Shown here: positions 3,499 to 30,258 of the stretch, one piece after another
Layout of the letters: every line of letters starts with the position of its first letter
How positions within the stretch are numbered: the first letter of the stretch is position 1
IMG/VR virus record: IMGVR_UViG_3300031999_000146
Location: 1-30,258 of that record
Source of the DNA: a virus
Lineage: Duplodnaviria > Caudoviricetes
Reading direction: 5' to 3' (one strand)
DNA length: 30,258 nt
Translations under genes and position numbers: made by a program
Notes under the pieces: generated by a model
Told to the model about the DNA's origin: nothing
The model's input: the letters and a program-made list of their open reading frames with translations, nothing else
Databases searched by the model: none

Positions 3499-5300
3499 TA
3501 CATTGTTGGTGTTAGTGGTGGTTGTTCTGCTGATACTGGTGCTCCTTGTGGTTGTGTTGCTTGTACTTGTTCTGCTGTGATACCTGAGAAGTCTGCTGGG
3601 TCTAGTCCTGATGATTCTAGAATATCGTTGAAGATTTTAGCAATAGGTGGAAGTGTAAGCACTTGTGGATTTACAATGATTTGTCTAAAGATGTTCACGA
3701 GTTTATCTGTTCGAGCTGATAGGTCTTTTGACTTACCTTTCACAGATACTTTAACTGCAAGTGGAGCGTCTTTGAACTCACCTTTTAATATATCAATGAA
3801 CTTCTTGTTACCACCCTTACTAAACTCTTTCTTTGCTACTTCTACCATGAGTTTGATTTGGTCTGGGTTCACTTCTTCTCCTGCAAGTACCATGTTCTTA
3901 ATAGTTTGGTTTGCTTGGTTGATAGCAACTCTTTCTGCTACATATTGCATGTCTTCAAGTGAAAGCTCTGAAAGGAACTTAGCACCTTCACAGATTTTCT
4001 TTTGAATGTGAGGGATAATCCAGTCTTTGTATACTTCTTCAATGTGTTTAGCGAATTGTCCTCTTCGATATTCATGTAGTCCATGAGCTTCTGATGTAAC
4101 AAGTTCTTGTAGTTTAAATGGTGTACCTGCTGTTGGATTGTTACCCATGATTGAATCATTGGCTGCTCCCATTTGTTGTGCATGTGCTTCCCATTGTGCT
4201 ACTGAGTTGTCAAAGAGTGCCATGTTTCGAGGGAATGTATCTACTTGTCCCAAGTCCCCACCTTCTCCTAAGTCCATAATCTCTAGGTTCTCTAGGTCTG
4301 TAAGCTTTTGTCCTGCTACCTTTCCACTGTTTGGGCCAACAGCTTTAAGGATAGTGATTGATGCTGCATCTAACATAGCTTGCATACGAATCATGTCGTA
4401 GTTTACCCATACTTGTGCTTCAAATAGTTCTTCTGCTCCTCCAAATCCTAATGCTCTACCATATACTGGGTCACGTTTAATGAGTTTGAATGGGCTCTTT
4501 GATTCTGGTTTTGTGTATAGAATAACTCCTTGCTTCTCTAGTCCTGATTTAGGTGTATAGAAAGCAACAATGAAGATTTGTGATTCATATTCTCCTGATT
4601 CGTCCATAGGGTCTGCAAATCGTTTAGGTAAGTTTCCATGTACTTCAAAGATTTCAATGTATCGTCCTGTTGTCTTAGCGTGTCCATCGTTCGTGTTGTC
4701 GTTTTTCTTCTCTGAGCGTGAGAGTGCAATCAAGTCTTTAAGTGAGATAGTTGCTCCATTTGATTCTTCACCCCACCCTGCCTTCTTCATATCCATGAGT
4801 TGGTCTGGTGAGTAGTAGTGTCTGATTCCTAGAGGGCCTGAAAGCATGTCTGTTTGGTCACAGAAAGCGATAGATTGTAGTGCAACAACTTCTGGTGCTG
4901 GTTTGTTTAGTTTCTTTGAAAGTCCTGCTCCAAAGTCTATTCGTGATACGTTCAATTCATCTAAGTATGTATCAATGTCGTTCTCTTGTACAAAAACATC
5001 ATCGTGGTACTTCTTCACCAAGAATGAAAGGTGATACTTCTCTGGGTTGTTTACATAGATTTGTACATCTTTCATCTCTAAGTCTTCTGTTCGGTGCTGT
5101 AGATTCAAAATAGGTCGTGTGATGTTCTTCACTGGTTTAAAATCATTCTTCCCTGTAAGAAGTTGTGAGTTTGTATAAAGCTCAGTTGTCTTGATGTGGT
5201 CTTTCATTGACCAGTTCCAAGAATCGTTAATAGGAATAGCCTGCTTGTAGTTAGCTTCCTGTGTGATTATATAATTAAATATGTTTTTATCTTCGTCCAT
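3498..5300 (-). CDS. Portal protein
   Basis: 600 aa, downstream of TerL, helical, P22-like size and position. Confidence 0.8.
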   Translation of the reverse strand: MDEDKNIFNYIITQEANYKQAIPINDSWNWSMKDHIKTTELYTNSQLLTGKNDFKPVKNITRPILNLQHRTEDLEMKDVQIYVNNPEKYHLSFLVKKYHDDVFVQENDIDTYLDELNVSRIDFGAGLSKKLNKPAPEVVALQSIAFCDQTDMLSGPLGIRHYYSPDQLMDMKKAGWGEESNGATISLKDLIALSRSEKKNDNTNDGHAKTTGRYIEIFEVHGNLPKRFADPMDESGEYESQIFIVAFYTPKSGLEKQGVILYTKPESKSPFKLIKRDPVYGRALGFGGAEELFEAQVWVNYDMIRMQAMLDAASITILKAVGPNSGKVAGQKLTDLENLEIMDLGEGGDLGQVDTFPRNMALFDNSVAQWEAHAQQMGAANDSIMGNNPTAGTPFKLQELVTSEAHGLHEYRRGQFAKHIEEVYKDWIIPHIQKKICEGAKFLSELSLEDMQYVAERVAINQANQTIKNMVLAGEEVNPDQIKLMVEVAKKEFSKGGNKKFIDILKGEFKDAPLAVKVSVKGKSKDLSARTDKLVNIFRQIIVNPQVLTLPPIAKIFNDILESSGLDPADFSGITAEQVQATQPQGAPVSAEQPPLTPTM

Positions 5301-5542
5301 TATAATATTCCTAATATGTTAGTTTCTGATACAACGTAGTGTACAACATTATCTATCTCAAACTCGTCAAAACCGAATTTAGAAAAGAGAATGTTATCTC
5401 CTTTCTTGATTATATCATTTCCTACCACCACTGTGCCAGTAACTGGCTTCTCTTTAGGGTCACCTAGCATGATTCCTGATGATGTTTCGTTTGGTAGCTC
5501 TGTTGGTTTAACTAAAATTCTATTGTTGAGTGGTTTAAACAT
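5300..5542 (-). CDS. groES: Co-chaperonin GroES-like (short, 80 aa)
   Basis: KPLNNRILVK, TSSGIML mobile loop, GTVVVG, KKGD.ILFSKFG, E..ILGI. Confidence 0.92.
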   Translation of the reverse strand: MFKPLNNRILVKPTELPNETSSGIMLGDPKEKPVTGTVVVGNDIIKKGDNILFSKFGFDEFEIDNVVHYVVSETNILGIL

Positions 5543-7555: not shown

Positions 7556-8878
7556 TTATTTAGTGTTATCTCTTTTAACTACTGAGATTCTTCCTACCTC
7601 TACAAGACCACAAGCTATACTCACTGCTGTTTCTAATGAAGCAATAAGTGATTCTGCTGTGTCATATACCTCTTTGAGATACTTCTTACCATTTTGTTCT
7701 AGTACCTCTCGTGGTTTTTGTAATGCCTTGTTTAAAATAGGTGATGACGTTTTAATCGTTTTATATGTCATACCTCCTCCTAGTATTATACCATTTGGAG
7801 ATGACAGTGCTATCTTCGTAGCTCCTACTGCGTCTTCTACTTTCTCTCTTACTGTGAACTGTTCATTCTTAGTTGGACTACCAACTTTAATTACTGCTGA
7901 TTGAGTGCCTTCAACAGTTTTCTTTCCAATAAGAGAAGTCTTTTCTTTAGTTGCTACTGCTGACTTAGCTAGTCCGAAGTGTTCCTTTGTAATTGGTCCA
8001 AGTTTAGGGTCGTGGATTGTACTATCAGTAAGCTCTGCTATCTTGTTCATAATCTCAAACTTCTCATCACCAAATCCTGCGTTGTTTACCAGTAGTGGAT
8101 TGAATACTCCATTAACTTTGTTCATAGCTATGATTGAGAGTACTTGGTCACTGAAGCTGTCTGCAAAGATAACGAACTCTCGTTTAGGTGACTTCATAAT
8201 CAACTCTAGTATCGGTATAAGTTGTTGTGGAGTTTGTAGTGCATCATTCACAATGATTATATATGGTTTATCCAATACTACTTTATCTCCTCTATTGGCT
8301 AGGTGTGTTGAGATATATCCTGCTGGCACTTCATACCCTGATGCTATCTCATAAGAGGTTGTCATATCCTCTGAATCCTCTATGTGTATGATTCCAGTTA
8401 TGCCTACCTTTGATACTACCTCTGATACTATCTTTGAAATGTCTTTGTTGTTGTATGCACTATAAGCCACCTTCTCAAGGTCACCTTTGCCTTTAATTTG
8501 TTTTGTCTTTTTAAGAATCTGTCCTTTAAAGTCTTCTAGTCCTTTACGAACTTCAAGTACATTGTCGTGTTCGTTTCCTTTAGCGAGCATTTCCTTTACC
8601 AGTGCAGACATAAGAATTGCTGAAGTAGTTGTTCCGTCTTGGATTCTTTCGTTTGTTTGTTTAGTTGTTTCCTTAATGTATTCAATGATTGCTTGTTCTG
8701 CATCATCTTCTAATTCAAAATGTTCTGAGCCAATCTTTCCATCATCTACTGCTTTGATTCCATTAGCCCCTATCAATATAGTCTTTCCTACTGGACCGTA
8801 TGTTGGTGTTATGAAGTCTAAATATTTGTCTATGGCTGATAATATTATTTCTTTTGGGTTGCTGTATATTATTTTCAT
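7556..8878 (-). CDS. groEL: Chaperonin GroEL-like, internally reduced (440 aa)
   Basis: TYGPVG, DDG, DGTTT, GYIS, AGFGD, AVIKVG, EKVEDAVGATK, GIILGGG motifs. Confidence 0.9.
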   Translation of the reverse strand: MKIIYSNPKEIILSAIDKYLDFITPTYGPVGKTILIGANGIKAVDDGKIGSEHFELEDDAEQAIIEYIKETTKQTNERIQDGTTTSAILMSALVKEMLAKGNEHDNVLEVRKGLEDFKGQILKKTKQIKGKGDLEKVAYSAYNNKDISKIVSEVVSKVGITGIIHIEDSEDMTTSYEIASGYEVPAGYISTHLANRGDKVVLDKPYIIIVNDALQTPQQLIPILELIMKSPKREFVIFADSFSDQVLSIIAMNKVNGVFNPLLVNNAGFGDEKFEIMNKIAELTDSTIHDPKLGPITKEHFGLAKSAVATKEKTSLIGKKTVEGTQSAVIKVGSPTKNEQFTVREKVEDAVGATKIALSSPNGIILGGGMTYKTIKTSSPILNKALQKPREVLEQNGKKYLKEVYDTAESLIASLETAVSIACGLVEVGRISVVKRDNTK

Positions 8879-10822: not shown

Positions 10823-11032
10823 TTAGTTGTTATATCCACCTTGGTCATCGTACATCTCGTATGGTTCATCTTCTTCGTCACTGTTATCGTCCATAAGTGA
10901 TTCCATTGTTTCTTCGTCTTCTTCTTGTTCTATAGTTTTTATTGCCAACGCTTCTTCTTCTCCTGATAGTCCTTCAATACTTTTCTCGTTCATTTCTCTT
11001 GCTCGGTCAAAGCCAAATTTGTATAAGTCCAT
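10823..11032 (-). CDS. Small highly acidic early protein
   Basis: About 25 of 69 residues are D/E; start at MDLYKF; the upstream part of the ORF is promoter/leader. Confidence 0.7.
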   Translation of the reverse strand: MDLYKFGFDRAREMNEKSIEGLSGEEEALAIKTIEQEEDEETMESLMDDNSDEEDEPYEMYDDQGGYNN

Positions 11033-11076
11033 AATGTTTTGTGTTAGTTGTAATCTGTAAGTTGCCTTACTCTTAT

Positions 11077-11120
11077 ATAATATCAGTTTATAATTATAAT
11101 GCAAGTGTACCTGTGGATAA
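11077..11120 (-). promoter_or_regulatory. Early promoter with upstream DnaA box
   Basis: TTATCCACA (11120-11112), then TTGCAT-TATAATTATAAACTGA-TATTAT. Confidence 0.65.
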
Positions 11121-11145
11121 ACTACTTATACCCTTATTTATAGCC

Positions 11146-11211
11146 CTACTTCCACCCTCTCAACAAATTAACAACTAACACAGAGGTTTTCATTTGAGAA
11201 GGCAGAAGTAG
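11146..11211 (-). ncRNA. Candidate antisense hairpin RNA
   Basis: 18-bp stem fully paired only on the minus strand (3 G-U); loop complementary to leaders at 11040-11058 and 13343-13361. Confidence 0.6.
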
Positions 11212-11233
11212 AACCGTAACTCTACAAGTTTAT

Positions 11234-12810: not shown

Positions 12811-12839
12811 ATTATATACTATTTACTTGTACTAGTAAA
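12811..12839 (-). promoter_or_regulatory. Promoter for the 12801 endonuclease
   Basis: TTTACT-17 nt-TATAAT-9 nt-ATG; TTTACT..AGTAAA inverted repeat over the -35. Confidence 0.65.
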
Positions 12840-12845
12840 CACCTT

Positions 12846-13109
12846 CTATGCCCTTTCATACTTAAATCCGACTAATTCCCCATTTACCCTGTATTCCACC
12901 TTCCTGAGGGGGTTTTTAGTTAAAAAGTACACATAGTCTTTTCCTGTTTTTGTTTTCACGAATTTACCCTCTGTTTCAAACCCTTCACCCTTTAAGTCAA
13001 GGATTATTGCTGACAGTCTAGTGATGTATTCTTTCAAGCATTCGTTTCTTGAAATCTTTCCATTTTCTAGCAACTGCTTTTTAACAAAGTTGAGTTGTGT
13101 TTTTTTCAT
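12846..13109 (-). CDS. Winged helix-turn-helix protein
   Basis: L..G.ISR.E.....ITRLSA.I.DL...G pattern. Confidence 0.7.
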   Translation of the reverse strand: MKKTQLNFVKKQLLENGKISRNECLKEYITRLSAIILDLKGEGFETEGKFVKTKTGKDYVYFLTKNPLRKVEYRVNGELVGFKYERA

Positions 13110-13336
13110 TAGAAGATGAAGTTAAGTGCTTGTAATATGTACACAGCAACTCCTATAGCAATTATTGTGTAGATTACTTTTTCTATCATCGATAGTTCCA
13201 TTGATTCTGCTGAGAATCCAAAGAAGTCATCTGAATCTGCTAATCTAAAATCTGCTTGAGGTTTCTTTTTAGCAAGTCTTTTCTTTTTAGTAACGAAGTC
13301 TGTATTTGTTGAATTGCTTTTTACTTTTAGTTTCAT
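13109..13336 (-). CDS. Small early membrane protein
   Basis: C-terminal TM helix; first gene after the promoter. Confidence 0.65.
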   Translation of the reverse strand: MKLKVKSNSTNTDFVTKKKRLAKKKPQADFRLADSDDFFGFSAESMELSMIEKVIYTIIAIGVAVYILQALNFIF

Positions 13337-13378
13337 ATTGTTTGTGTTAGTTATAATTTGTACTTGATGTACTCCTAT

Positions 13379-13406
13379 AGTTTACTAACTATAATTATAA
13401 TGTCAA
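13379..13406 (-). promoter_or_regulatory. Early promoter
   Basis: TTGACA-TTATAATTATAGTTAG-TAAACT; shares CATTATAATTATA with the 11100 promoter. Confidence 0.7.
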
Positions 13407-15333: not shown

Positions 15334-15375
15334 CTTTTATAGTAATGTACTTTGCCTATGATAAAATACTTAGTA

Positions 15376-15657
15376 ATGGGATTATATAAACTAATCAACA
15401 AAGATACTTGCACCATTTGTGGTAAGAAACTTTTAGTTCCTTCTTGGAAGAATTGTGAAGATTGTGATTTTAATTCTTATCGAAATAAATATTTAAGAAA
15501 ACAAATAAAAATAGAAAAAGCGAACCTAGTAAGGTTACAATTTCAAAAACTTAAAAGAAAAAATATGAGAAGTGTTAACTCTTCTAACTTAGTAAAAGCA
15601 CAAATAATAGTATTTGATGATTACAGTGGCAAGGTGATAGGGTACAGAATGTTTTAA
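15376..15657 (+). CDS. Zn-ribbon basic protein, antisense to the main gene flow
   Basis: CTICG...CEDC; TGATAAAAT 8 nt before ATG. Confidence 0.6.
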   Translation: MGLYKLINKDTCTICGKKLLVPSWKNCEDCDFNSYRNKYLRKQIKIEKANLVRLQFQKLKRKNMRSVNSSNLVKAQIIVFDDYSGKVIGYRMF

Positions 15658-16392: not shown

Positions 16393-16421
16393 TTGATTAA
16401 GGTGTGTCCTTATGTTAGTAT
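16393..16421 (+). promoter_or_regulatory. Promoter for the inverted endonuclease
   Basis: TTGATT-17 nt-TAGTAT (with TGn)-8 nt-ATG. Confidence 0.65.
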
Positions 16422-16429
16422 TAGTGTAT

Positions 16430-16951
16430 ATGGATATAATAACACGAAACTGTACATTTTGTAACAAAGAATTTACACCGAACACAAGAGTTCAAATAAA
16501 TTGCTCGATACAATGTACAAAAAACAAATATTACAAAAGAAAATGTATTGAGTTAGGGAAATCATCAATTTTTGTAAATGAAGAAGATTTTTACAAAACA
16601 GAAACAGGTATTGGATTTAAGTGGGAAAAATATGTAGCAGACAAATTAGGTGCAACACATTTAGAATTTAATCTAGACGGATTAGATATAGATTGGAACG
16701 GAAAACTTATTGATGTTAAATCAGCACACCTAAACAAAAGAAAAAACAAAAGGGGAAAACCTGTGGTGGGTAAACAATTAGGATACTGGAATTTTAAGGG
16801 TTGGGGTTTAAATGAACCGAGTTTTTTTGTATGTGTCTGCGTAAATGATGATGAAAGTGTTGAAAAAACACTGATAATACCCTCATCGCTTTATCCAAAA
16901 CAAGGAATCACTGTTGGTCAGAAATCTAAATATGATATTTATTTAATTTAA
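16430..16951 (+). CDS. Zn-finger + PD-(D/E)XK endonuclease, probable homing endonuclease
   Basis: CTFC...CSIQC; G...E.......D......IDVKS; inverted inside the lysis cassette. Confidence 0.75.
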   Translation: MDIITRNCTFCNKEFTPNTRVQINCSIQCTKNKYYKRKCIELGKSSIFVNEEDFYKTETGIGFKWEKYVADKLGATHLEFNLDGLDIDWNGKLIDVKSAHLNKRKNKRGKPVVGKQLGYWNFKGWGLNEPSFFVCVCVNDDESVEKTLIIPSSLYPKQGITVGQKSKYDIYLI

Positions 16952-17685: not shown

Positions 17686-17698
17686 ACTTATAATTATA

Positions 17699-25429: not shown

Positions 25430-26926
25430 TTATACGTTATCAAGGATAGTTGCTTTACAAGAGTACCCTGTAATTTCTCCACCCCCTGTACTTGAGAACT
25501 GAAACTTATATTCTTTACCTGAAGCAAAGTTTGCATCTGTTGATTCAATACCTAAGAATGTTCGTGAGAGTTCACCTGCTGTTGAAAATGTCCCAATAGT
25601 AGTCCATGAAGTTGCATCATCTACTTTGTATTTAGCTGTGAATGTTTCGCCTGATGCTAGTTTTCTAAATGAAAGTCTTACTGCTTCTAAGCGTTTGTCT
25701 TTCTCTACATCTCCAAAGTTAATAATTTGTGTTTCGTATATAGATGTAAATGTGTATGTTGCTGCATCGTTTGTCTTATCAAGAGAACCATCTCCTGAGT
25801 GAGCGATAAAGAAGTAGTTTGCTGCTGTACCAAAAGATTGAATACCTGAAGTGTTGATGTTCTCGTCAATAATATCGAGAGTAAGTGTGTACGGATAGCT
25901 AGCGTTCTTTCTACCAAAAGACCAAATACCCTCATCGTATTCTGTACCTGCACTGTTAGTCATAATCTTTGCTGCAAAAAATACTCTGTTGTTTTTTACT
26001 GCCTTTGAGATTGGCATAGTTTTACCTACAAGAGCTTGTGTAAATACTTCTTTAACTACTTGTGGTACTCCTCCTTGGTACACTTGAATAATCATAGAAC
26101 CTTTACCTGCTCCTGCTGCGTTATTTAAATATCGGTCTGTCACACCTACTAACATTCCTTCGATAGTTTCAAGCACTCGAAGTTCACCTTCTCCCCAGTC
26201 AATCGCTTCTTGAACATCTGTTGAAGTTAAGTTCCATAGGAATACCTTTGATGCTCCGTTGAATGTAGAGATAGGAGCACAAGCAACTGCGAGATACTTA
26301 CCATAGTTAGCAATAGAAGTAATTTTAAAGTTAGTTGGGAGTGTCAAAACAGCGTCATTTACAGTTCCTCCTGATGTCACTCGTGCGATTTTATTGTTAT
26401 ATGGAAGATAGAGGTTGTCATCTGCTGCGATAACACCATTAGCTACTGATGTGATAGTACCTACAGTACCTGCTGTGTTTGAGATTGCAGGTGTACCTGA
26501 TAGAAGACCCCATTTGAATACTTGTGTAGTTCCTTGAAATCCCCATAGATAGTCCTTGTATTCTACTAAACAACCATATTGAACAGCTCCGTTACCTTCT
26601 GAAGTAGCAGGTGTAGTCCAAAGTCCTGTTGTAGCATCTGCTTTTTGTAGAATCTTTGTAAGTCCTCCTGCTGTCTTACCAAGTCCATAGAGTTTAGCTG
26701 AAGCTGAAGCGTATACAACATCTCGTACATAGTATTGTTTTAGGTCTGTAGAAGATATAGATGTTGCGTGGTCTGCTTCTAGTGAACGATAAGGTACAAG
26801 TCTGTTAGGTTGTGAAAATATATCAAAATGCTTTGTGATTATAAATTCACTGCCTGATTCCTTTCGAGGGTCATCTGATATACCACCTGAGAAGTTATTT
26901 ATTTTTAATTCTACTGTCTTGGACAT
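25430..26926 (-). CDS. Tail nozzle/stabilisation protein (P22 gp10-like beta-propeller)
   Basis: NNFSGG N-terminus, all-beta repeats, synteny. Confidence 0.65.
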   Translation of the reverse strand: MSKTVELKINNFSGGISDDPRKESGSEFIITKHFDIFSQPNRLVPYRSLEADHATSISSTDLKQYYVRDVVYASASAKLYGLGKTAGGLTKILQKADATTGLWTTPATSEGNGAVQYGCLVEYKDYLWGFQGTTQVFKWGLLSGTPAISNTAGTVGTITSVANGVIAADDNLYLPYNNKIARVTSGGTVNDAVLTLPTNFKITSIANYGKYLAVACAPISTFNGASKVFLWNLTSTDVQEAIDWGEGELRVLETIEGMLVGVTDRYLNNAAGAGKGSMIIQVYQGGVPQVVKEVFTQALVGKTMPISKAVKNNRVFFAAKIMTNSAGTEYDEGIWSFGRKNASYPYTLTLDIIDENINTSGIQSFGTAANYFFIAHSGDGSLDKTNDAATYTFTSIYETQIINFGDVEKDKRLEAVRLSFRKLASGETFTAKYKVDDATSWTTIGTFSTAGELSRTFLGIESTDANFASGKEYKFQFSSTGGGEITGYSCKATILDNV

Positions 26927-29372: not shown

Positions 29373-30092
29373 TTATCTAAAGTTAATTCCTATTGGTCGT
29401 AATATTCTTTTTTCGTCATTGTTTCTATCTTCAAAGTACTCAATCAATTTTCTTTCCTCTTTCTCTAACTCAACTGATAAAGGTTGAGTGTTTGAAAGTC
29501 CAAGTGTGATTGCTCCGTCATAGGCTGCAGCAATAATAAATCCTCTATCAAGTAATTGAGAGAATCCTGTTGTCTTTGTAGTATCTGTTGCTGCAAAAGA
29601 CGGAGAAGCTCTTTGAAAGAAGAATCTAAGTCCTGAAGCAACTGTTGCATCTGGTTTAGCGTCTAGTCTTATGATGTTGTCTGCAATCTTGTCGTATGAA
29701 GTAATAACACCTCTTGCTGTACCAAAGTATGCTGAATCAATACTAGGGTCGTTTCTATCTATTTGAGTTAGTGGTACATAAGAGCCATTTCTGAGGACTG
29801 AGATACCTGTAAGAGTGATGATTTGGTTTCCGTCTTCATCTGAAAGGAAAGAATAGTCAGTTTGGTCTTGATTTAAATTTGTAGTTCCTTCTGGGAGCTT
29901 TGTTTGGTTTGTGTTGTCCCATTGGAAGCGTTTGTCTGCTCCTATAGCGTATGCTGTAAGTCTATCAAGCCAGTTGTTACATGAGTTCACTATCTTTGCT
30001 GTTGTCCATTGTGTTGAATCTACACGCATGAATGAGCGTACTTGTTGTACGATTCCGAGGTTTGTTACTGTATCTGAAAATGGTGTTGACAT
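29373..30092 (-). CDS. Head-tail adaptor protein
   Basis: Position after capsid genes; start at MSTPFSD (30092), confirmed by the other allele. Confidence 0.65.
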   Translation of the reverse strand: MSTPFSDTVTNLGIVQQVRSFMRVDSTQWTTAKIVNSCNNWLDRLTAYAIGADKRFQWDNTNQTKLPEGTTNLNQDQTDYSFLSDEDGNQIITLTGISVLRNGSYVPLTQIDRNDPSIDSAYFGTARGVITSYDKIADNIIRLDAKPDATVASGLRFFFQRASPSFAATDTTKTTGFSQLLDRGFIIAAAYDGAITLGLSNTQPLSVELEKEERKLIEYFEDRNNDEKRILRPIGINFR

Positions 30093-30131
30093 AATATATA
30101 AAATTGTTAATAAGCGTACTCTCCTAAATGT
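30087..30131. other. Empty (endonuclease-free) allele corresponding to 100-600
   Basis: 45 bp between the same two flanks that enclose 501 bp at the left end. Confidence 0.92.
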
Positions 30132-30258
30132 TTCACGACTATTGTTGGGTCTATCCACGTCTTGTACCCTGCATCTCTCGCCACGTTACTAAACCAAGCG
30201 TCCTCTCCCATCGCAAGTGCTCCTTGTGAATCTCTACCGAAGTTGAACCAAGGGTTCT
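30107..30258 (-). CDS. 3' end of glycosyltransferase, empty-allele version ending KHLGEYAY*
   Basis: Same frame and sequence as 601-727, different last codons. Confidence 0.88.
   Translation of the reverse strand, partial: NPWFNFGRDSQGALAMGEDAWFSNVARDAGYKTWIDPTIVVKHLGEYAY

Follow-up and report, generated by a model that had tools for sequence, protein, structure and literature searches.

A candidate antisense hairpin in the 3' UTR of a phage early operon, with a loop complementary to the leaders of two early operons

The window, meaning the whole stretch of DNA analyzed, is the 30,258-nt phage record IMGVR_UViG_3300031999_000146, which has a completeness rating of 98%. Nearly all of its genes lie on the minus strand, and they include genes for a terminase, a capsid protein, tail fibres, an endolysin, GroES, a 440-aa GroEL-like protein, and an ERF annealing protein. 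A scan of 45 window ORFs found no integrase, repressor, or antirepressor families, which is not proof of a lytic lifestyle. An SD-like 4-mer is present at only 3 of 46 window gene starts, and the leaders are A-rich and G-poor. Several features lie away from the early region. The GroES gene and the short 440-aa GroEL-like gene (window 7556-8878, 5300-5542) flank the terminase on either side; the closest whole genome, G001, has a GroES/GroEL-type copy 72% identical to that of the window, and distant copies occur in several terminase relatives. The window ends repeat as two blocks (1-113 with 29988-30100, and 600-727 identical to 30131-30258), and an HNH-like gene (107-592) between the left-end blocks suggests a mobile endonuclease present in some genomes only, or an assembly overlap. 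The sole two sizeable plus-strand ORFs, 15358-15657 (+) and 16412-16951 (+), flank the endolysin gene, contain Cys-pair motifs, and resemble endonuclease-type genes that have been inserted.

Twenty-one relatives of the terminase were found in the genome collection. Among the best 14, 6 are in assemblies titled as Patescibacteria lineages (Nomurabacteria twice, Adlerbacteria, Saccharibacteria, Uhrbacteria, and Patescibacteria group), while 8 are in assemblies titled as other or unnamed bacteria, which may be mis-binned phage contigs. Relatives of the capsid protein occur in 2 of 401 Nomurabacteria-class genomes, on contigs of 36 kb and 12 kb with clusters of phage structural genes. The assignment itself was drawn only from terminase relatives in assembled genomes; because of these and the capsid relatives, a host among the Patescibacteria, which are ultra-small bacteria, is likely rather than proven. 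RNase III was present in 101 of 101 sampled genomes of the likely host class and Hfq in 0 of 101, these genomes being incomplete.

The early region comprises two operons, each beginning with a predicted promoter and a short leader, and a hairpin lies between them:
13420, minus strand: second TTGACA near promoter P2
13379-13406, minus strand: predicted promoter P2 (TTGACA 13406-13401, 16 nt, TAAACT 13384-13379)
13390-13399, minus strand: palindrome TATAATTATA in the P2 spacer
13337-13373, minus strand: leader 2, with a predicted mini-hairpin GUAC-AUCAA-GUAC (13372-13360), lacking an SD sequence; target 13361-13343
13109-13336, minus strand: target gene 2, a 75-aa orphan with a basic N terminus and a hydrophobic C-terminal helix
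11234-13109, minus strand: rest of the hairpin-bearing operon, encoding a wHTH-like protein of 87 aa, a PD-(D/E)XK nuclease, the ERF annealing protein, and 107-aa and 120-aa orphans
12811-12839, minus strand: internal promoter-like site ahead of the nuclease gene (TTTACT-17-TATAAT; a consensus match alone)
11142-11215, minus strand: hairpin in the 3' UTR of the upstream early operon (18-bp core 11211-11146, extended to 22 bp with 6 G·U pairs)
11164-11193, minus strand: hairpin loop, 30 nt (fold prediction)
11183-11193, minus strand: variable 5' part of the loop
11163-11182, minus strand: anti-leader segment UGUGUUAGUUGUUAAUUUGU, 19 of its 20 nt inside the loop, pairing with both leaders
11112-11120, minus strand: TTATCCACA upstream of promoter P1
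11077-11104, minus strand: predicted promoter P1 (-35-like TTGCAT 11104-11099, extended -10 TG-A-TATTAT 11085-11077)
11089-11098, minus strand: palindrome TATAATTATA in the P1 spacer
11033-11071, minus strand: leader 1, with a predicted 5' mini-hairpin GUAAG-GCAA-CUUAC (11070-11057) followed by an unstructured stretch lacking an SD sequence; target 11058-11040
10823-11032, minus strand: target gene 1, a 69-aa orphan, strongly acidic (25 D/E, 5 K/R) and the first gene of the P1 operon

The original prediction placed twin promoters before both leaders. The consensus scan lists P2; P1 was not listed, and its call is based on the extended -10 element and on alignment and paralogy to P2. The internal site at 12811-12839 is a possible second source of hairpin-bearing RNA. 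Besides its two copies in the early promoter spacers, TATAATTATA occurs at 17689-17698 before ORF 17685; it may be an operator, perhaps one recognized by the wHTH-like 87-aa protein (12846-13109), whose family match is weak (E 0.029). The predicted leaders are about 37 nt each and have the same plan, a 4- to 5-bp mini-hairpin at the 5' end followed by an open A/C-rich stretch, and the predicted cost of opening their target sites is only 0.1 to 0.4 kcal/mol (0.4 for 11056-11040). A ribosome is expected to load at about -26 to -7, the region that the loop would cover. Target gene 1 has no family in Pfam, PHROG, or Atlas; an acidic profile of this kind is typical of DNA-mimic or anti-defence proteins. 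Target gene 2 likewise has no family, its Pfam matches being below threshold and its Atlas matches under 0.9.

The hairpin begins 18 nt past the stop codon (11234) of the 120-aa gene, the last of a tightly packed gene run extending from 13336 to 11234, in agreement with the 3' UTR location proposed for it. In the minus-strand RNA the 18-bp core (11211-11146) consists of contiguous pairs, 3 of them G·U, with a folding energy of -27.5 kcal/mol (z -6.3; reached by 0 of 200 shuffles). The prediction that three plus-strand mismatches become G·U pairs and so fix the strand was borne out: all non-Watson-Crick pairs in the stem are G·U on the gene strand, and the extended 22-bp stem (11215-11142) folds at -33.6 kcal/mol on the minus strand compared with -19.3 on the plus strand, a gap of 14 kcal/mol. 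As RNA the extended hairpin has a z score of -6.1, and as DNA it folds at -11.2 with a z score of -4.0. A scan of 80-nt minus-strand windows at 20-nt steps ranked this hairpin first (-34.4; runner-up, -28.5). Typical features of an intrinsic terminator are lacking, in that the loop is 30 nt, no U-tract follows the stem on either strand, and the terminator scan did not list the site. No promoter-like site was found in 11700-11200, the 500 nt ahead of the hairpin, and ARAGORN gave no match. The extended stem starts with GGU, which resembles the GGW site cited in the accessible part of PMC5320573, and it has no 3' CCA-like tail.

Within the loop, the segment 11182-11163 pairs with 11058-11040 and with 13361-13343, each time as 11 bp, a 1-nt bulge, and 8 bp, with duplex energies of -21.9 and -19.9 kcal/mol. 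These sites end 7 nt before the ATG at 11032 and 6 nt before the ATG at 13336. Compared with an exact mirror of the loop, the two leaders show one A-to-G difference, one C-to-U difference, and the same missing base; because the loop has U at the A/G site and G at the C/U site, both leader variants pair, with G·U tolerated. The leaders are paralogous (75% identity over 75 nt) and are therefore not independent targets.

The claim that the loop is antisense to these two sites held when the loop was ranked against 46 curated gene starts: its best two partners are leader 1 (-22.1 kcal/mol) and leader 2 (-20.1), the third scores -16.3, and the remaining 44 are at least 3.8 kcal/mol weaker than the two targets. 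Dinucleotide shuffles of the loop reached the energy of leader 1 or leader 2 in 0 of 1,000 trials, matched the best-of-46 energy in 13 of 1,000, and matched the second-best in 2 of 1,000. A reverse scan scored 10,076 minus-strand windows; the loop reached -46.6 (both leaders summed) and the best window elsewhere -33.2, a margin of 13 kcal/mol. When both strands were scanned, leader 1 (-22.4) and leader 2 (-20.5) scored best apart from self matches, followed by an intragenic site (-19.1). With all 72 ATG-ORFs of at least 35 aa included, an out-of-frame start at 25935, nested in a late gene, scores -23.0, above leader 1. After the cost of opening both partners is paid, net energies are -11.8 and -10.0 kcal/mol for the two leaders. 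Cofolding the intact hairpin with the leaders is uninformative, as the algorithm treats loop pairing as a pseudoknot. These results support a complementarity that is nonrandom and specific to the leaders.

The region is present in three public runs, all as DNA contigs, with no RNA run listed; X1, which may be the source of the window, was not counted, and the comparison covers X2, which is nearly identical to the window, and X3, which is about 90% identical. The X3 data are single contigs with depths of 2.4 to 7.5, mostly under 5, and possibly come from more than one phage. At 11213, X2 and X3, from two studies, both turn the U·G pair of the outer stem into C-G, keeping the pair, and in X3 leader 1 a G-to-A change at 11055 turns a G·U pair with the loop into A-U. 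In the X3 contig carrying leader 2, none of the 15 of 21 substitutions listed falls in the target or the mini-stem; at about 8% divergence, a 19-nt target would stay unchanged about 1 time in 5. The alignment of the X3 hairpin contig spans 11134-11183 and has a single unplaced difference in 50 nt. In this contig (depth 2.8), the 8 loop bases 11184-11191 are replaced by 90 others, right at the edge of the anti-leader segment, giving a loop of 112 nt, and the sequence enters different genes on both sides of the hairpin. The stem and the anti-leader segment are kept there, while other sequence takes the place of the loop's 5' part and of the two flanking genes. The changes in X2 and X3 agree with pairing and are suggestive, short of proof by covariation, with one diverged homologue.

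Close relatives also exist as terminase clusters at 89-92% identity. The closest near-complete genome, G001 (capsid 90% and terminase 75% identical), has no DNA match to the hairpin and no anti-leader hairpin; by eye, the leader after its early promoter (L167:2238-2352) is longer and pairs with itself, a possible alternative control. In IMG/VR, the anti-leader 20-mer pattern had 0 matches, the stem pattern had 17 matches, none of which form the hairpin of the window, and a relaxed pattern had 118 matches, none with the hairpin/anti-leader architecture; 9 of these 118 precede an ATG, and 5 lie inside a predicted helix of at least 10 bp. The flanking 120-aa gene identified 3 distant loci in IMG/VR, all lacking the hairpin, and neither the 107-aa gene nor GroEL, used as IMG/VR queries, led to a locus homologous to the hairpin. 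Alignment of ERF returned at least 80 viral and at least 80 metagenome loci, one being the window's own record and the rest of those listed unrelated in context. Since G001 lacks the hairpin and the IMG/VR pattern scans found no homologue, it belongs to the accessory content of a mosaic region. X3 keeps the stem, the anti-leader segment, and the leader pairs, in line with the expectation that loop/leader pairing would be conserved; G001 has no such hairpin.

A detector for noncoding hairpins with anti-leader loops was applied to 260 loci (2.58 Mb; self copies, G001 duplicates, and the 17 stem-pattern loci excluded). Of the 80 hairpins it returned, only that of the window has two targets scoring 33; the next second-best score was 28. 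The top score, 38 in L207, was discounted, because its target, rich in U, overlaps ORFs on the opposite strand, and long hairpins in L023 and L024 had no specific leader match on inspection. In L271, a phage contig (G009:C11) with six genes in common with the window, a hairpin (L271:13615-13679; z -6.5) directly follows the capsid gene. The best partners of its loop among the 34 leaders of that contig are those of a portal-like gene (-22.6) and the capsid gene (-18.0), with the next at -13.8. The gene strand carries two copies of a 9-mer tag, and a third copy is inverted, with targets near L271:9488 and 12715, and the 9- to 10-nt tag is found only in the portal-like and capsid leaders of the contig. 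The motif was not found as a leader in other terminase loci. The L271 hairpin is unrelated in sequence to that of the window and addresses late genes; this case, chosen after the fact, suggests that the anti-leader hairpin design recurs in the lineage with unrelated sequence. A further related phage contig (G078:C12:12652-12794) has a 21-bp stem around a tRNA-like sequence with GGTTCGAATCC motifs.

We regard the hairpin as real and as a statistically strong candidate antisense element, with comparative support that is thin but consistent. The reading we prefer, to which we give about an even chance, is that it gives rise to a 3' UTR-derived antisense RNA, probably freed by RNase III, that represses early translation without Hfq. 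Transcription from P2 or from the internal promoter at 12839 would place the hairpin at the 3' end of the early recombination mRNA; gene packing suggests that P2 transcripts reach it, and leader 2, at their head, is complementary to the loop. Such a transcript can carry both targets in cis. A 19-bp helix within a closed 30-nt loop is topologically difficult to form without cleavage. Host RNase III would cut the 22-bp stem and release the loop, and opening the stem in this way would remove the barrier. The freed G/U-rich loop would then pair in trans, without Hfq, with the SD-less leaders at about -26 to -7 and block ribosome loading on both promoter-first early genes. The outcome would be a delayed negative feedback, in which two orphan early proteins, one acidic and one membrane-like, are lowered once early RNA accumulates. 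Blocking of a ribosome-binding site by a sequence exposed in a loop has a precedent in c4 RNA, as described in the available text of PMC12197685 and PMC5320573.

Other explanations account for part of these data. It is possible, though unlikely, that the loop acts only in cis, pairing with leader 2 of its own transcript as in an icaR-like closure, or, in read-through RNA, forming a pseudoknot-like fold with leader 1 some 105 nt further downstream, gene 11032 being translated in the latter version from P1 transcripts alone; the outcome could be repression, stabilization, or enhancement. The operon that the hairpin ends is the one that leader 2 starts, nothing would stop read-through to leader 1 in the absence of a U-tract, the L271 hairpin sits directly 3' of a capsid gene whose own leader it matches, and icaR, as far as the accessible part of PMC3868564 describes it, provides a precedent. 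Against this, passing a 19-bp helix through a closed loop with long flanking sequence poses a greater difficulty in cis, and the X3 hairpin contig enters a different gene at 11134, while the X3 leader-1 contig differs upstream at 11147. With these breaks the read-through geometry is therefore lost and leader 1 is still complementary, although the contigs may come from different phages. We judge it unlikely that the hairpin is instead a terminator, attenuator, or processing/stability hairpin before P1 like those of PeSL cassettes, its loop being a relic inverted copy of a leader that stays unpaired in vivo. The order of stop codon, stem-loop, AT-rich stretch, and promoter is that of one PeSL subclass, and a PeSL stem-loop lowered downstream reporter expression like a strong terminator (both from the available portion of PMC2839356); the stem here is very stable, and similar AACUAACAC leaders in other phages are represented by the 9 ATG-preceding matches noted above. 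A relic would not account for loop/leader differences that are all tolerated as G·U, for X3 keeping the anti-leader segment exactly to its edge despite a remodelled loop and with P1 not adjacent, or for a second case of unrelated sequence in L271, and the long loop, missing U-tract, and silent terminator scan are unlike an intrinsic terminator.

A role at the level of DNA is improbable: the 19-mer would be a protein-binding site, perhaps for the wHTH-like protein, located immediately 3' of both promoters, with the third, inverted copy upstream of P1 permitting looping or a cruciform. There are indeed three related copies, two of them equally placed relative to the twin promoters, and the weak wHTH match is in the same operon. 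However, the inverted copy carries a 1-nt insertion and does not adjoin P1 in X3, the G·U-rich stem folds far better as RNA than as DNA, and TATAATTATA, found in both promoter spacers, is a more natural operator. Chance pairing of a G/U-rich loop with generic A/C-rich, SD-less leaders is highly improbable and largely refuted. The base composition of the leaders and the score of the nested out-of-frame start, as good as that of leader 1, would be expected from it, but not the failure of every one of the 1,000 composition-preserving shuffles, nor the energy gaps to the other 44 leaders and in the reverse scan.

If real, such an antisense RNA would mean that a phage lacking an integrase, in SD-poor Patescibacteria without Hfq, uses a single 3' UTR hairpin acting on two operons to time its early genes, and would mark leader bases (about -26 to -7) important for SD-independent initiation in these bacteria. 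We place only a small probability on a broader version, in which the hairpin is a portable module of Patescibacteria phages resembling a precursor microRNA, with RNase III freeing a swappable loop "guide" directed against a private tag in SD-less leaders. Such a module would address early leaders here and portal and capsid leaders in L271, and extra guides could fit in the 112-nt loop of X3. If true, it would provide timing control that needs neither protein nor Hfq, and possibly RNA-based exclusion of kin phages. We know of no description of small-RNA regulation in Patescibacteria-type hosts. The element is small and amenable to reporter and in vitro assays. The literature covered, mainly open articles in their main text (the supplements of PMC2864571 may hold related motifs), contained no description of such an element for Patescibacteria phages, nor of anti-leader hairpins of early genes.

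Comparison with known systems places the hairpin near several of them. Most known phage antisense RNAs that silence genes of the phage itself belong to temperate phages of enterobacteria, and their sites of action are Shine-Dalgarno sequences. The CI RNA of satellite phage P4 derives from an early transcript, is processed by RNase P and PNPase, and pairs with early RNA, causing premature termination in its own leader. The likeness to the candidate element lies in a proposed processed RNA from an early transcript that would pair with early RNA. A cmscan of the whole window against Rfam to an E value of 5, the Infernal check proposed for the element, gave nothing at the hairpin, no C4 or CI match, and two weak matches elsewhere (DapZ, 1.4; sR9, 3.6). 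The suggested kinship with P1 C4 and P4 CI therefore survives as a C4-like logic, a loop directed against a start region, and not as family membership, the window having one hairpin, no Rfam match, and no immunity region found.

PeSL cassettes of T4-type phages occur repeatedly in a variable region as early promoter units that have a stem-loop separating the stop codon from the promoter (available portion of PMC2839356). The stop codon, stem-loop, AT-rich stretch, and sigma-70 promoter at 11234-11077 reproduce this layout. PeSLs have an SD sequence and many copies per genome, in contrast to the window, with no SD in either leader and two promoter copies, only one of which has a long upstream hairpin; their stem-loops are terminators or attenuators, and the portion of PMC2839356 available describes no anti-leader loop. 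In Staphylococcus aureus icaR, a motif in the 3' UTR base-pairs with the start region of translation; this blocks initiation and creates an RNase III substrate (PMC3868564, accessible part). That motif is a short anti-SD sequence acting on one chromosomal mRNA, whereas the hairpin presents a 19-nt non-SD segment in a loop to two operons. Small RNAs released from 3' UTRs by RNase III are marked by a long double-stranded stem, RNase III in the host, and a discrete processed RNA; the stem of the candidate element is 22 bp, and the likely host class carried RNase III in every sampled genome.

The closest parallel is c4 of phages P1 and P7 (Rfam RF01695), which, according to the available text of the sources, is cut from a longer transcript and has loops that pair near the ribosome-binding site of a phage mRNA (PMC12197685, PMC5320573; PMC2864571). 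c4 has three stem-loops (P1 to P3) and two pairing loops (a'/b') (PMC5320573, accessible part), whereas the hairpin is a single stem-loop with one pairing segment of 19 to 20 nt. In the same available text, c4 is matured at its 5' end by RNase P at a tRNA-like stem and serves lysogenic immunity through control of an antirepressor or kil; the hairpin differs in having two separate operon heads as targets, SD-less leaders, no Rfam match, and no integrase or repressor found in the window. The hairpin works like P1 c4, yet it is not a member of the Rfam C4 family. In both, a loop is complementary to the translation start region of a phage mRNA, and target specificity resides in the variable loop, as far as c4 is described in the available text.
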